Shown here: piece by piece, positions 15,001 to 21,000 of the stretch
How the letters are laid out: each line of letters begins with the position of its first letter
How positions within the stretch are numbered: position 1 is the first letter of the stretch
NCBI GenBank assembly: GCA_039818205.1
Contig: JBCBUK010000002.1
Location: forward strand, 224,001 to 288,000
DNA: 64,000 bases
Origin: Verrucomicrobiota bacterium
Lineage (GTDB): Bacteria; Verrucomicrobiota; Verrucomicrobiia; Opitutales; Cerasicoccaceae
Direction: 5' to 3'
Position numbers: made by a program

Positions 15001-18000
15001 ATGATACAACGGCCTATCAGATCGCCACGATCAGTCAATCGCGAGATCAGTTTCACGGTTTTGGCGGCTCGACGGCAAAATTTATTTTTCCTGAAATATT
15101 TCTGAGAAAGGGTTCTCTAATCCATGTAGTTCTTCGTCAAATTAGGGGGTAAATAGGCCCTGGTCTACGGAGAAATTTGAATAGAGCCTACAGGTGTATA
15201 GTAAAGATGTCAAAATTTCATAAGTTATTGATAATTAGTAGGTAAATTATATTTATTTGTTTGGAAATAGGCTTCCCCTTGCTAGCTTGATTTGTATCCC
15301 GAACCTGTGAACAACCTAGCTCTCATATAGCGATGTCCAGAACGACCTAATTTGTGTAAATCCTCGCCCGATATCTTTTGGATAGGTCAGACCATGTATG
15401 GCGACCGACCCAATCGATAACGGGCCCAGCCTGATCGGAATCACGCACCGTCTTGTCTCAGATAACCCAACAAATGGGCTCGCTGAGAGCGGGCTGTGCT
15501 TTGCCTAAGAGCCATCTCAGTAACCCAAAACAATACTTGATGAAACATACAATCCTACTCGGCCTTGCGGCGATTGGAGCCAGTGCGACCGCCTTTGGTC
15601 ACGGCTCGATGCTCGACCCAGTTAGCCGAGTCTACGAAATCTTTTTGGAGAATCCAGAATCTCCGGATTACCCATCTTCCGAGGCTGCGATTGCCGTTAA
15701 TGGCACGCAGCCTTTCTATGACTGGAGCGAGGTAAATCGCCTCGTTCCCCAGCGAAACTACCAAGAACTCATCCCTGACGGCCAGCTTCCCGGCGCCGGA
15801 CGTGACAAGTACGCGGGATTGAACCTCCTGCGGGACGACTGGCCAGTCACCTCGATTCAGGCAGGTTCCTACGATTTCGTCTACGACGCTCACGTCCCTC
15901 ACGATCCGAGTTACTTTATCGCCTACATCACCAAGCCCGGCTATGATTCGTTGCAGCCCGTTGCTTGGGACGACCTGGAGTTGCTCGATGACAACATCGC
16001 AGCGAACTTGGTCAACGGCCAGTACCTCTTCACCTTGGATCTGCCCGAGCGTAACGGGCGACACGGCATCTATGTGATTTGGCAACGAGTCGATCCTGCT
16101 GGTGAAGCGTTTTTCTCGTGGAGTGATGTTGTTTTCGGTGACGATAATGGCAACACAACTACGCCAACGGACCCTGGCATGTCGGGTGGTCCGAGCTCCC
16201 AATACGTGGACTTCTCGGTGAGCGATAGCTGGGATGGCGGCTTTATTGGTAACGTAACCTTATATAACCCGTTTGATGCAGCGATCAATGGCTGGTCGCT
16301 CGAGTTCGACTTCAACCCGGATATCACCAATCTCTGGAGCGGTGTGATTTCCAGCCGTGGCGACAATCAATACGTTGTCGATAACGCCTCCTGGACTGGA
16401 AGTATTCCCGTTGGCGGTTCGGTGAGTTTTGGATTTCAAGCAAACGGCGATGCTGCACATGCCCACATGTCCAACTTCGTCCTAAACGGGATTGATATCA
16501 GTGACGATCACTCGCACCACGACCCGGACCCAGATCCCACACCGGACCCAGATCCCACACCGGACCCTGATCCCACGCCGGATCCCGATCCCACACCGGA
16601 CCCTGATCCCACGCCGGATCCCGATCCCACACCGGATCCTGATCCGACGCCGGATCCCGATCCTACACCGGATCCCGATCCTACACCGGACCCTGATCCA
16701 ACACCCGATCCAGGGGTGAGCGCTTTGACAGTCGATGTTATTGATGACTGGGGAAATGGATTCACCGCTAATGCAAAATTGACCAATGTCACGGATTCTG
16801 CACTCAGTGGATGGATGATCAGCTTTGACTGGGACTATCAGATTACGAACATCTGGAATGCCGAAATCGTGTCCCAGGAAGGTAACCGCTACACGGTGCA
16901 AAATGCATCCTGGAATGCGAATGTCGGCGCGGGAGCGATCGTCGAATTTGGTTTCAACGGTTCTCCGGGCAACGTTACGGTCCAGCCCACGAATATCACC
17001 CTGAATGGAACTCCGGTTAGCGGAGGTGACCCGACACCAGATCCAGACCCGACACCAGATCCAGATCCCACACCGGATCCCGATCCTACACCGGACCCTG
17101 ATCCGGGGCCCGATCCGAGCAGTGGTGACTTCCGCAAGCGGGTTGTCGGCTATTTCCCAAGCTGGGGCATCTATGGTCGCAACTACTTCCCGAAGGACAT
17201 CCCGGTGGATCAGTTAACCCACGTGATCCATTCCTTTGCCCGGATCTCCACCTCTAACGAAATCGCGATCATTGACCCGTGGGCCGATATCCAGATCTCG
17301 CTGGGTGATGGTGTTTCCAATCAGCCCTTTCAAGGCATCTTCAATGAGTACATTGAACTCAAGGAAGCCAATCCGCACTTGAAGACCTTGATTGCCGTTG
17401 GTGGCTGGTTTGACTCAGGTCGCTTCAGCCAAGTCGCTGCGAGTGCATCAGCTCGTGAGACCTTCGCTCAATCGGTTTTGGACTTCGTGCTTCAGTATCA
17501 ATTCGACGGTGTCGATCTCGACTGGGAATACCCAGTTGTTGCCACCGGTGTGAATGGAAATGTGAGCCCAGCCGATGGTGAAAACTATGTCCTGCTTGCT
17601 CGCGCAATTCGCGACAAGTTCGACGCCCAAAGCGCCATCGATGGAAAAGAGTATTTGATCAGTGCCGCGATCCCGGCGGGTTTTGATAAATACGAGGCCA
17701 TCAACATGGCTGGTTTGGCAGCCGAGCTGGACTGGATCAACGCGATGACCTACGACTACCATGGTCGCTGGGTTAGCAACCGGACTGGCCACAACGCACC
17801 GCTCTACCACAATCCGGCAAACCCGGACAATGATCGATACAACGCCGATTCCACCGTCCAGGGTATGATTTCTATGGGCGTGCCAGCTTCAAAAATCAAC
17901 CTCGGTATTCCACTCTATGGTTATACCTGGCAGGGTGTGCCTTCGGCCAGCAATGGTCTTTACCAGTCGGCCACGGGAACTGGGTTTGGAACGATCGTTG

Positions 18001-21000
18001 AGGAGCCTGGTATGGCTGATTATCGGACAATTGCCGCGCTCTTGGAAACGGATCCAACCAACAACCGCGAGTATTGGGACGAAGCGGCTCAGGCGAGTTA
18101 CTTCTATTCATCCACGATGAACGGTGGTTCCTTTGCAGGCTATGACAGCCCCCGTGCGGTTGAGCGTAAGATTGAGTATGTCGACGCGAATGGATTGGGC
18201 GGCGTTATGTTCTGGGAAATCTCGAATGACATTCGCGATTCAACCGATCCAAATAGCTTGATCAAGATCTCGGCCGATGCCTTCACCGAAGTGGCTGACC
18301 CCGGCTTGGGGGCCTTCAACTACGGTGAAGCGTTGCAGAAGTCTTTGTTCTTCTACGAAGTCCAGCGCTCGGGCGAACTTCCTGCGGATAATCGAGTTTC
18401 TTGGCGCGGCGATTCCGCCGTCAACGATGGCTCAGATGTCGGTGTGGACTTGAGCGGCGGTTACTATGATGCGGGAGACCACGTTAAGTTTGTCCTGCCC
18501 ATGTCGGCTTCGCTGACGCTGTTGGCTTGGGGCATCGACGAGTATCGAGAAGGCTATGCGGATTCGGGTCAACTGGACCAGGCGCTCGATACGATTCGCT
18601 GGGGAACTGATTGGCTGATGAAGGCCCACCCGGAGCCCAATGTATTCTACGCTCAAGTGGGTGATGGTCATGTTGACCACGCCTATTGGGGACCGCCCGA
18701 GGACATGACAATGGCCCGCCCTGCATGGAAGGTGGACGCGCAGAATCCTGGTTCCGATGTTGCGGGCGAAGCCGCGGCGGCGCTCGCAGCTGCATCGATC
18801 ATTTTCCGGGACAGCGACCCAGCCTATGCCGATCAGCTCCTGACACACGCTGAGGATCTGTTTGCCTTTGCCGATCAATATCGCGGCAAGTATTCGGACG
18901 CGATTCCCAATGTAACGTCGTTCTATAACTCCTGGTCGGGTTACAACGATGAGCTCGTCTGGGGTGCTGCCTGGCTCTACAAGGCAACGGGTGATAGCAG
19001 CTACCTGGCGAAGGCCGAGAGCTATTGGAGCTCGTTGCTCGGTGGCTTGAACCCAAGCTGGACGATCAATTGGGACGATAAGTCTTATGGCGCGGCCTTG
19101 ATCCTCGCGCAGGAAACGGGCAAGGATCAATACAAGCAACAGGTTGAAGGCTGGCTCGATAACTGGGTCAGCGGTTCGATCCAAAAGACCCCGGGTGGTT
19201 TAGCTTGGCTCGACCAGTGGGGTAGCTTGCGCTATGCCGCAAATACGGCGTTCCTTGCCTTCGTTTACGGCGATACTGTGAACGACAAGAATGGAACCTA
19301 CACGGGCTTTGCCGCGGGGCAGTTGGATTACATCCTAGGAGACAATCCGAACCAGCGCAGCTACGTCGTTGGCTTTGGCAATAACCCGCCGATCAATCCG
19401 CATCACCGTGCGGCGCATGGGTCGACGACCAATAATATCAACCTTCCAGCAAACAATCTTCATGTTCTTTATGGAGCGTTGGTGGGCGGACCAAATCAGC
19501 CTGATGACAACGCTTACGTTGATGATCGCACGGACTTCATCGCCAATGAAGTTGCGATGGATTACAATGCTGGCTTTACGGGTGCTTTGGCCCGTCAGAC
19601 TCAGGACTTGGGTGGCGATCCGCTTCCCAATTTTCCACAGGACTAATTTCTCCTGATACACATTGGACTTGGTGTTTCAGCACCAGGTTACCGTGACCGG
19701 ACGCAGTTTAGGCTGCGTCCGGTTTTTCTTTGGAAAGGTGGATCTCCCTCGCAGAACGGTTTCCACAACTGGATGTCGCAGTCTAAGGCTTGCCGATTTT
19801 AAGGAATACTAAGACTGCTTTCTCGTCTCCATTGGAGCGTAATTCAAATCGCCTGCGACTATCGGGCAAAGATCGATTGAATGGGCAAACGCATTAGGAG
19901 ATTCCTAAAACGCCTTTCGGCGAGATAGCGCAAGATATTCGCCTTGTGTTGGAGGCGGTTGGGCACTCGATAGTTGGCTGAGTGGCATTTCTTAAGCTGG
20001 TGCGTATCGGCAAGATAGGTGTCCAACGAATGGTCATTGTAGAGGTGCTCGTGAATCCTGACTCCAGGGAGGCCTTCTAGGTTGATGGCGTGTTGGTAGT
20101 CGCTTTGGAAGCCGCGGCTTACATGAATCAAATATTTGGTCTTACCGTTGTATTGGTCGAGCACGCTCCTTAAGTTCATGTATTTCGTAGGCGCTTCCGG
20201 GTTCTCGTCAATCAGGCGTTGGACCCGTTTCATTTGCCTGCGAACCATCAGTTCCTGGTCACTTAGGGCGTCGGGATCTAGGTTGGTGAATGGGGCAATG
20301 GCGACCGCGACATCTGCCTTCAGGAGGTGGCCAAATAATAGGGCAGGAAAGCTACCCGCAGAGCTTCCGGTGGTGATCAATCGCTTGGGAGCAAAGCGTT
20401 TGACCAGGGACTCGATTTCGGCGCGAACTTCGTTGAAGTCCTTTCTCTCGGGAGGAATCCCGAGCAAGGTCATGCAGGTAGACCGGTCGTAGACGAAAAT
20501 CTTGTGGTAACTATCAAATCCGTACGCTCGGCAAAGTTTTTCACGAAACTTCTCGGGGTGGTTGGACTGATTGAGAAAAACAATGACTAGTGTATCGGTG
20601 TTGGTTGAGCCTTTTTCTGCTATGATCATCGCTTGGGATATACGCTTTCAATTAAACCTCCCTATTAAGGGTATTTCGACGATTTCGGCAAACTGATTTT
20701 TTACATACGTTCACCCACGCGATTGCGTGAGAATCAATCCCTGTCGGGCAATGATCGCCAGCATCCAGGCAAAACCGATCACCATGATGATGCGGCCGGC
20801 GAGTAGGACGCCTCGGGCGATGTAGATGTCTTGGTTCATCAAACCGAGATCGCCCAGGATGAATTCCCAGTCGTGCCCGTGGACCTCTTTTCCCGTGCCG
20901 CCGCCCAATAGTTGGAGCTGAAGTGCACGGGCATCGTTGATATAGGGAGCGCAATCGACGGTGCTTTGGCCCAGCCACCAGATTCCGCAGGCGGTTCCAA

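Follow-up and report, generated by a model that had tools for sequence, protein, structure and literature searches.

One gene of a Verrucomicrobiota bacterium joins AA10 LPMO, GH18 chitinase and GH9 cellulase modules in a protein predicted to be secreted

Within a 64,000-nucleotide stretch of the genome of a marine Verrucomicrobiota bacterium (the window; contig JBCBUK010000002.1, positions 224,001 to 288,000), the gene g00677 (15540-19646, + strand) encodes a lytic polysaccharide monooxygenase (LPMO), two CBM2 modules, a GH18 chitinase domain and a GH9 domain in a single uninterrupted frame of 1368 aa without a stop. We consider it probable that the product is a tethered dual-substrate enzyme whose two hydrolases rely on a common oxidase and a common set of CBM2 modules. 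This reading is based on the observed domain families, their catalytic residues, conservation within the genus and the repeated occurrence of the trio. The three-enzyme oxidase-chitinase-cellulase design is new to the literature searched, where, as the earlier note had found, three-enzyme LPMOs go unreported; LPMO-glycoside hydrolase fusions as such are already known from Jd1381.

Module order and linkers

The order LPMO-CBM2-CBM2-GH18-GH9 in a 1368-aa protein with a predicted signal peptide, much as the earlier note described it, is reproduced by the translation of the window and a Pfam search, with the signal peptide assigned by eye. The longest frame begins at a TTG (15453), and the ATG at 15540 gives an N-terminal layout as in the orthologues. 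From this start, residues 1-20 (15540..15599) form a putative signal peptide ending in AFG, and the protein is predicted to be exported by Sec and cleaved to free His21. The AA10 LPMO follows (residues 21-200, 15600..16139; PF03067 match at residues 21-197, E 1.2e-36, 127.6 bits, cut-off 23), and its match spans the entire profile, positions 1-183 of 183. The CBM2 match falls in two stretches (PF00553, 147.8 bits, E 1.3e-43): module 1 at residues 223-318 (16206..16493; 226-318 by phmmer) and module 2, the best stretch, at residues 399-491 (16734..17012). The GH18 domain occupies residues 534-897 (17139..18230; PF00704, E 6.7e-91, 305.7 bits, cut-off 29.6), and the GH9 domain residues 925-1368 with the stop codon (18312..19646; PF00759 match at residues 928-1350, E 1.6e-165, 552.2 bits). 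All these features lie on the + strand. A terminator-like hairpin with a 13-pair stem (8 G-C) and a T-rich tail (19695..19724, +) starts 49 nt past the stop; it is a consensus match only, of a kind found 6 times against 5.4 expected in shuffles.

In the linkers, Tandem Repeats Finder confirms the tandem repeat reported earlier and shows a second array. Linker 2 (residues 319-398, 16494..16733, +) opens with a His/Asp cluster (16494-16523, +) and continues as (PDPDPT)n with an 18-bp unit in 10.4 copies at 87% matches (16524-16711). Linker 3 (residues 492-533, 17013..17138, +) holds PDPDPT repeats in other codons (17028-17104). The spacer between GH18 and GH9 (residues 898-924, 18231..18311, +) is short and non-repetitive; in the orthologues 29-65 residues separate the mapped GH18 and GH9 domains, in some cases with a repeat of their own. 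The linker repeat is particular to each orthologue (PDPDPT in g00677; DDGS, GTDDGST or GDTG in others), and although the repeats differ, the His cluster after the first CBM2 stands in the same place in 5/5 distinct orthologues.

Both CBM2 modules carry Trp in WxxGF, N(L/I)W and NASW contexts, which we take to be the binding residues, and lack the usual Cys pair, the whole protein having 0 Cys. Module 1 shares 51-60% identity with the first CBM2 of the orthologues, and module 2 shares 55-63% with their second and third CBM2 alike. CBM2 also binds chitin, according to a 2023 review (PMC10154629).

Catalytic residues and nearest solved relatives

By alignment, the LPMO lies nearest to ScLPMO10D/CbpD, a chitin-active group, and has a 'hybrid' active site. 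The best solved relatives in a sequence search, at 45-49% identity, are CbpD (8c5n, 1.7e-46), the fern AA10 Tma12 (6if7, 5e-46) and ScLPMO10D (7zjb, 1e-45), members of AA10 subclade A2 and its kin. The same entries, with CbpD entry 7sqx, lead a Foldseek search with a low-confidence model of the domain (mean pLDDT 59.3, residues 1-44 poor), for which all 43 matches at E <= 0.001 are AA10. Mature-domain His1, His101, Arg163, Glu169 and Phe171 (His21, His121, Arg183, Glu189 and Phe191 of the protein) align with ScLPMO10D and CbpD, and the second-sphere Arg/Glu and axial Phe are common to 6if7 as well. The last four are invariant in 54/54 LPMO domains of relatives, and in 51 of the 54 distinct domains the LPMO match opens with His, which stands behind a hydrophobic leader wherever upstream sequence was available. 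One study (PMC10067821) names the Arg/Glu second sphere with axial Phe 'hybrid', describes ScLPMO10D and CbpD as active on chitin only, and links two positions to substrate choice (Asn76/Thr131 in ScLPMO10D). At these positions g00677 has Ser/His by alignment, and the residues found among the relatives do not sort by partner enzyme. Since the nearest solved LPMOs are active on chitin only, it is a guess that one oxidase serves both polymers.

ScLPMO10D, CbpD and 6if7 have two disulfides and no fused hydrolase, whereas g00677 has fused hydrolases and neither disulfide, the Cys-aligned positions 14, 27, 64 and 174/175 holding other residues. ScLPMO10D is cell-wall anchored and CbpD is a virulence factor, unlike g00677. 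All 45 rows of the Verrucomicrobial LPMO clade have 0-1 Cys, so the disulfide loss is old and tolerated.

The GH18 domain has its best solved relatives in a chitinase with two GH18 domains (5gzu/5gzt, 1.5e-116), followed by 1itx (7e-85). Its catalytic motif DxxDxDxE (D656-G-V-D659-L-D661-W-E663; DGVDLDWE at 656-663) aligns with that of 5gzu. Nearly all of the 60 listed solved GH18 matches are named chitinase, chitotriosidase or chitodextrinase, and the weakest-scoring include one N-acetylglucosaminidase. The 5gzt/5gzu enzyme, whose structure entry is named only 'Chitinase' and which we take to be ChiW of Paenibacillus sp. FPU-7, is a multi-catalytic surface enzyme like the g00677 product but combines two copies of one family, without LPMO or GH9.

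The GH9 domain aligns end to end with the catalytic domain of Thermobifida fusca Cel9A/E4 (1js4, 1tf4; best match 1js4, E 9.2e-178, residues 6-447 of a 449-residue piece). D977, D980 and E1337 line up with D55, D58 and E424 of 1js4, which, following the Cel9A literature, we take to be the two catalytic Asp residues, the second of them the base, and the Glu that serves as acid. Every E4 position checked is identical in the alignment (D55, D58, H125, Y206, W209, W256, D261, W313, R317, Y318, H376, R378, E424, Y429); beyond the catalytic trio these presumably line the cleft, as named in the same literature. Cel9A has a rigidly attached CBM3c, which makes it processive, and a CBM2, whereas in g00677 the CBM2 modules lie far upstream of GH9 and Pfam finds no CBM3c (PF00942). 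The chain ends 18 residues past the Pfam GH9 match, and the alignment stops where the E4 chain continues into its cellulose-binding domain. The type of processive endoglucanase represented by Cel9A, GH9 with fused CBM3c, was rejected for this missing module. By analogy with Cel9A truncation work, the GH9 of g00677 may be weak on crystalline cellulose.

Distribution among relatives

Orthologues occur in 5/5 other genomes of the genus, four as single frames of 1576-1629 aa and the fifth as a fragment in a genome 72% complete. Catalytic residues are kept in every copy within the genus, and domain identities of 77-87% with invariant active sites indicate purifying selection.

Four of the best 120 of 2713 matches combine all three families in precomputed Pfam lists (P0002, P0003, P0004, P0006), and 35 of the same 120 map as an N-terminal LPMO with GH9 and no GH18; both counts agree with the earlier note. 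Its further claim, that the trio is confined to Cerasicoccus and a few metagenome proteins, does not hold, as two other genera of the same family carry it. One (G010) encodes LPMO-CBM2-Calx-GH9-CBM2-GH18 in a frame of 1800 aa, and the other (G008) has this order plus a second GH18 in a frame of 2268 aa, so that GH9 precedes GH18 in both, in contrast to LPMO..GH18..GH9 in g00677. The Caldilineaceae protein P0006 (LPMO-CBM2-GH18-GH9-CBM3-CBM2) assembled the trio independently: its LPMO and its GH9 fall into clades of their own, amid LPMO-GH9 proteins that lack GH18. Partial combinations include CBM2x3-GH18-GH9 beside a separate LPMO-CBM2x3 gene (G012), LPMO-CBM2x3-GH9 beside a separate GH18 (G047), and GH9 joined to GH18 without an LPMO (P0064/P0067). 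Verrucomicrobiota proteins of the type LPMO-CBM2-(Calx-beta)-GH9(-CBM3) share with g00677 the LPMO clade (45 rows), the CBM2 type and a related GH9, but lack GH18; many have Calx-beta and, after GH9, CBM3, and g00677 has neither. Databases label these proteins only 'glycoside hydrolase family 9 protein'.

Among characterized proteins the closest is Jd1381 (JdLPMO10A) of Jonesia denitrificans, a fusion of two enzymes (AA10-CBM5-GH18), which the 2023 review (PMC10154629) calls the only characterized bicatalytic LPMO and reports to have outperformed, at full length, any mix of its separate domains. Both proteins place an N-terminal AA10, a CBM and GH18 on one secreted chain (export being predicted for g00677). 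They differ in the CBM (two CBM2 against CBM5) and in the Gram-negative host of g00677, and the small AA10 of Jd1381 (5aa7) is a far relative, with no sequence match at E <= 0.001 and Foldseek rank 43 at 24% identity. Thus g00677 fits the single-chain LPMO-CBM-hydrolase type and exceeds it by a second hydrolase of another family, the GH9.

Proposed working and alternative readings

As a tethered dual-substrate enzyme, the protein would be exported by Sec and lose its signal peptide, leaving His21 as the N-terminus, which with His121 would form the AA10 copper site and be loaded with copper. The two CBM2 modules on acidic Pro/Asp/Thr linkers would hold it to a crystalline surface of chitin or cellulose, where the LPMO would cleave chains oxidatively. 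The tethered hydrolases, which may gain from the tether, could then work the opened surface, with GH18 acting on chitin and GH9, as an endo-beta-1,4-glucanase of the Cel9A kind minus CBM3c, on beta-1,4-glucan.

A point against this reading is that the linkers might be cut after export. The product would then be a polyprotein yielding LPMO-CBM2, CBM2-GH18 and GH9 in fixed proportion, with no catalytic role for tethering, which we think unlikely. The linkers are long, of low complexity and fast-changing, each orthologue having its own repeat, and kin G012 and G047 have split versions; against this, the GH18-GH9 spacer of ~27 residues is not repetitive, the fusion is intact in 4/4 complete copies within the genus, and the covalent link mattered for Jd1381 in the review's account (PMC10154629). 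That the modules form an all-chitin machine, with GH9 attacking chains related to chitin (partly deacetylated chitin or chitosan) and the protein as a whole aimed at one polymer, seems to us quite unlikely. The nearest solved LPMOs are chitin-active, GH9 and GH18 have been joined repeatedly (in P0064/P0067 even without an LPMO), the genome has no beta-glucosidase family that we could find, and a GH9 subgroup is reported to act on chitosan oligomers (PMC6096475). Yet the Cel9A cleft residues checked are all identical, the Vibrio cholerae glucosaminidase type does not appear among the solved GH9 chains that match at E <= 1e-100 (17 in all), and the chitin route is equally bare, NagA and NagB not being found in the genome either.

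Loss of both LPMO disulfides and of CBM3c would also suit a chitinase or adhesin in which the LPMO or GH9 is inactive or only binds. This is very unlikely given the catalytic residues kept in every copy of the genus, domain identities of 77-87% with invariant active sites, and a disulfide loss that spans the 45-row Verrucomicrobial LPMO clade. Hardly credible is an artefact of assembly or gene calling in which linker repeats collapsed and so fused genes that are really separate: Logan contigs of run X1 do break inside both repeats, and P0080 and P0094, with an internal LPMO behind a signal peptide, look like merged gene calls, but four other complete assemblies from the genus show the same order, g00677 is free of stops and frame changes, the rest of the assembly holds no orphan CBM2, LPMO, GH18 or GH9, and no signal peptide or start context precedes the inner domains.

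The LPMO, GH18 and GH9 of g00677 are the only ones of the genome: at 99.97% completeness, PF03067, PF00704 and PF00759 have one match each, all in the g00677 frame, in line with the earlier note. The further claim that attack on crystalline chitin/cellulose is packed into one gene stands for the three enzymes only, because a second protein with two CBM2 modules is encoded at C4:4097-6115 (-), so that such attack need not rest wholly on g00677. The C-terminal domain of this second protein shows a likeness to GH5/GH39 TIM barrels, which is seen only in the predicted structure. We found no GH1, GH3, GH94, GH116 or GH5 in the genome, no NagA above the cut-off (20 bits against 225), no NagB and one GH20 gene; the sole PF01182 gene adjoins G6PD/OpcA and is therefore probably a lactonase. 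A feeding role thus has no visible route for either product.

That the gene stays intact in genomes (G000, G003) where no GH3 or NagA-like gene was found leads us to a speculative and rather unlikely idea: that the product is a convergently assembled wall-breaching tool, not a feeding enzyme, for opening barriers of marine eukaryotes in which chitin and cellulose form composites or alternate. If this is true, its targets would be algal, oomycete-like or invertebrate walls. The conserved His/Asp cluster behind the first CBM2 also led us to this idea; it might serve the LPMO as a copper site, loading or protecting it.

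A single frame for three catalytic modules

The gene is a single frame of 1368 codons without interruption (window 15540–19646, + strand). In this one open frame a Pfam search places four families: an LPMO_10 domain (residues 21–197, E 1.2e-36), two CBM_2 stretches, a Glyco_hydro_18 domain (residues 534–897, E 6.7e-91) and a Glyco_hydro_9 domain (residues 928–1350, E 1.6e-165), all on the + strand. The joining of an LPMO, two CBM2 modules, a GH18 and a GH9 in one gene, as the earlier note described it, is thus borne out. The ATG at 15540 opens a 20-residue leader that is followed immediately by HGS; translation could also start at an in-frame TTG (15453), although the leader would then be buried.

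A terminator-like hairpin lies 49 nt 3′ of the stop codon. The gene neighbours encode an MBL-fold protein, a cupin, a dicarboxylate symporter and four ORFs of 214–589 aa for which the profile search returned no Pfam family at E ≤ 0.001 (14412–15056, 19859–20629, 20711–21517 and 23000–24769, all on the − strand). We saw no link to polysaccharide use among the flanking genes, and because the neighbours are unrelated in this respect the gene looks monocistronic. Recent transfer was considered and set aside, as composition shows no sign of it: in GC content the gene (0.54–0.565) differs little from its flanks (0.49–0.55). Among the sequencing runs listed, the stretch was matched by one DNA run (X1), which may be the source of the assembly, and by no RNA run. 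The X1 contigs break within the linker repeats, and one X1 unitig crosses the second CBM2 module at a depth of 47 versus 37–40 alongside, in a comparison that is not independent of the assembly.

Catalytic sites, linkers and cysteine content

The GH18 domain carries the motif DGVDLDWE at residues 656–663, and scores best against solved chitinases (5gzu/5gzt, 1.5e-116; 1itx, 7e-85). The GH9 domain aligns to Thermobifida fusca E4 (Cel9A) from E4 residue 3 to 453 (9.2e-178), with identity in the alignment at the catalytic D55, D58 and E424 and at eleven further positions of the cleft. The chain ends where E4 runs on into its CBM3c, and Pfam finds no match to PF00942 in the 1368-aa protein; this marks it as a GH9 endoglucanase domain and not as a Cel9A-type processive unit.

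Aligned over its full length, the LPMO part is closest to CbpD (8c5n, 1.7e-46), a fern AA10 (6if7, 5e-46) and ScLPMO10D (7zjb, 1e-45), with weaker matches to the cellulose-active ScLPMO10C (4oy7, 7.8e-17) and CBP21 (1e-4). A 9-sequence alignment gave a weak AlphaFold model (pLDDT 59.3); the top four Foldseek entries for it are 7zjb, 7sqx (CbpD), 8c5n and 6if7. In the alignment the copper site and second sphere are matched by His21, His121, Arg183, Glu189 and Phe191. The 54 distinct LPMO domains compared from relatives all share His101, Arg163, Glu169 and Phe171 (mature numbering), and 51 of them have His1; of the other three, two are truncated and one has Arg. PMC10067821 terms the ScLPMO10D site "hybrid": the Arg and Glu are like those of cellulose-active AA10s, and the polar pair Asn76/Thr131 is like that of chitin-active AA10s, the corresponding residues of ScLPMO10C being Phe82/Trp141. 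At these two positions the LPMO in the window has Ser/His. We discarded the pair as a guide to LPMO substrate, since it is variable among relatives (S, H or N at the one position; H, A, W, T or P at the other) and does not sort by GH18 or GH9 partner.

The linker repeat reported previously was confirmed in linker 2 at 16524–16711, where an 18-bp unit is present in 10.4 copies. The array of linker 3 (17028–17104) uses different codons for the same peptide repeat. Each species has its own linker repeat, reused in several linkers of its protein: PDPDPT here, and DDGS, GTDDGST, GDTG and others in the orthologues (loci L019–L022). This usage points to fast turnover of the repeats with homogenisation within the gene. 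Directly after the first CBM2, at residues 319–328 (window 16494–16523, + strand), lies a His/Asp cluster that is kept at the same place in all five distinct orthologues (for example HDHGDHDHG, with 3–7 His per 40-residue segment), while the rest of the linker is completely different. It also occurs in LPMO-GH18 and LPMO-GH9 relatives with acidic linkers (the listed homologues P0032, P0038 and P0047, the locus L026 and, weakly, L024), and is absent from proteins with Pro/Thr linkers. The cluster is a possible metal site.

The 1368-aa protein contains no cysteine; solved relatives of the LPMO have Cys at four aligned positions, forming two disulfides. Of the 117 ATG-initiated open frames in this genome that reach 1000 codons, 9 also lack cysteine, and therefore the trait is common among its large exported proteins and not special to this gene. 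Cysteine-free domains might prove simpler to produce than LPMOs with disulfides, a point that would be of practical interest.

Genome content and possible role

The assembly (4.85 Mb, 66 contigs, 99.97% complete) has one match each to PF03067, PF00704 and PF00759, all in this frame, in agreement with the statement in the earlier note that the genome holds no other LPMO, GH18 or GH9. That note went on to say that the attack on crystalline substrates is packed into one gene. The uniqueness of the trio stands, but a second protein may be another enzyme for crystalline surfaces. Two of the four CBM2 matches in the genome fall in the gene under study and the other two in a 673-aa protein outside the window (C4:4097–6115, equal to L007:283–2301, − strand), which has a signal-peptide-like start and a 380-aa C-terminal domain. 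For these 380 residues we found no Pfam family and no solved relative. The ESM Atlas model of the protein matches unnamed clusters at a TM of about 0.9 and GH5/GH39 clusters at 0.65, and a single-sequence model of the C-terminal domain is poor (pLDDT 47.5). As a lead only, this protein may represent a glycoside hydrolase family that has no name yet and that targets crystalline polysaccharide.

A profile search of the genome found no GH1, GH3, GH5, GH94 or GH116. It also found no NagA above the cut-off (best match 20 bits, cut-off 225) and no NagB; the sole PF01182 gene is in a G6PD-OpcA cluster and, because it adjoins G6PD and OpcA, is probably a lactonase. The single GH20 adjoins a sulfatase and a SIS-domain protein. 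With no cellobiose or chitobiose route visible, the purpose of the enzyme comes into question. Within the genus, GH3 matches number 3–5 in each of three genomes (G001, G002 and G005) and are lacking in G000, G003 (97% complete) and G004 (72% complete); NagA-like genes (E about 1e-50, below the cut-off) are present in G001 and G005 and were not found in G000, G002 and G003. A permissive initial filter underlies these searches, and there may be other routes. Within that limit, the gene is retained with or without the usual downstream enzymes, which leaves room for a non-feeding role or for cross-feeding.

Relatives, domain orders and assembly of the trio

Among 61 genomes of the order searched, the gene is present in each of the five others from the genus, as four frames of 1576–1629 aa and one fragment in a 72%-complete genome. 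The same-genus copies have three CBM2 modules, versus two in the window gene. The gene fusion is real, intact and conserved. The earlier note saw the full trio only in Cerasicoccus and a few metagenome proteins; it is also found in two other genera of the family. In one of these (G010), an 1800-aa frame has the order LPMO-CBM2-Calx-GH9-CBM2-GH18. In the other (G008, L023:1217–8020), a 2268-aa frame of the same order contains an LPMO, three CBM2, three Calx-beta stretches, a GH9, a divergent GH18-like stretch (2e-14) and a full GH18. On the G008 chain, four modules belong to catalytic families. Split sets occur as well: G012, of the same family, has CBM2x3-GH18-GH9 and a separate LPMO-CBM2x3, and in G047, which belongs to a different family, LPMO-CBM2x3-GH9 occurs alongside a separate GH18. 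Across the phylum, an even sample of 401 genomes yields just 8 with any PF03067 match.

We mapped the four domain types with phmmer on 135 rows, comprising the best 120 of 2713 homologue hits, the query and 14 frames from genomes of relatives. All three catalytic families are present in 11 rows (9 distinct proteins), LPMO and GH18 without GH9 in 6, and GH18 and GH9 without LPMO in 4. An N-terminal LPMO with GH9 and no GH18 is found in 36 rows, including 35 of the best 120 of 2713, which reproduces the earlier figure of about 35 for this architecture.

In a quick-search LPMO tree of 54 rows, a Verrucomicrobial clade (45 rows, 0–1 Cys) stands against a 9-row clade (6 Cys) containing P0006, a Caldilineaceae protein with all three catalytic families. 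GH18-attached and GH9-attached LPMOs interleave within the 45-row clade. A careful search of 23 GH18 rows gives one clade (100/99) for the genus, the other genera of the family and metagenome LPMO-GH18 proteins, with P0006 and the homologues P0064/P0067 outside it. In the GH9 tree (128 rows, quick search), the type found in the genus (7 rows, 100) is apart from the type of G008, G010 and G047 (10 rows, 100), and P0006 falls in a third clade among LPMO-GH9 proteins. Taking the domain trees together, the trio was assembled on two or more occasions, in the Verrucomicrobial lineage and separately in the Caldilineaceae type. The family has the trio in two orders, which arose either through rearrangement or because the domains were joined separately. 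A separate GH9 origin for the two Verrucomicrobial orders was not upheld: an AU test on 50 chosen rows did not reject a single clade (p 0.563), and therefore our claim is one of different orders, not different origins.

A passage of PMC10154629 notes that some LPMOs are parts of bicatalytic enzymes, names Jd1381 of Jonesia denitrificans (AA10-CBM5-GH18) as the sole one characterised as of 2023, and states that tethering improved chitin breakdown. Unlike Jd1381, which pairs an AA10 with one hydrolase, the window protein joins an AA10 to a chitinase and also to a cellulase. PMC8615602 mentions AA15 LPMOs with GH9 or GH18, and PMC10067821 includes GH5 and GH18 among AA10-attached domains. Our full-text searches found no report of an LPMO with two hydrolases and none of this protein family, as the earlier note had indicated, and pairing the genus name with chitin and cellulose retrieved nothing relevant among the 12 papers listed. 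An LPMO tied to both hydrolases offers a direct test bed for three questions: whether one "hybrid"-site AA10 can serve both polymers, whether two hydrolases gain from sharing an oxidase and binding modules, and why chitinase and cellulase have come together more than once, in three or more domain orders and two phyla.

Two further architectures were observed among the relatives. In four genomes (G009 and G013–G015; loci L028–L031), proteins of 1442–1539 aa consist of a CBM2, a stretch of roughly 600 aa, two CBM2 and a GH18. The middle stretch of these genus-g5 proteins lacks both a Pfam match and a solved relative, and nothing clear came out of the Atlas; an 'EPD' motif is reminiscent of GH6, but that assignment was dropped, as nothing supports it. 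In two metagenome proteins (P0080 and P0094), the LPMO lies at residue 1192 or 1214 with a typical signal peptide ahead of it; in each record two genes have probably been merged, or else cleavage is needed to free the His.
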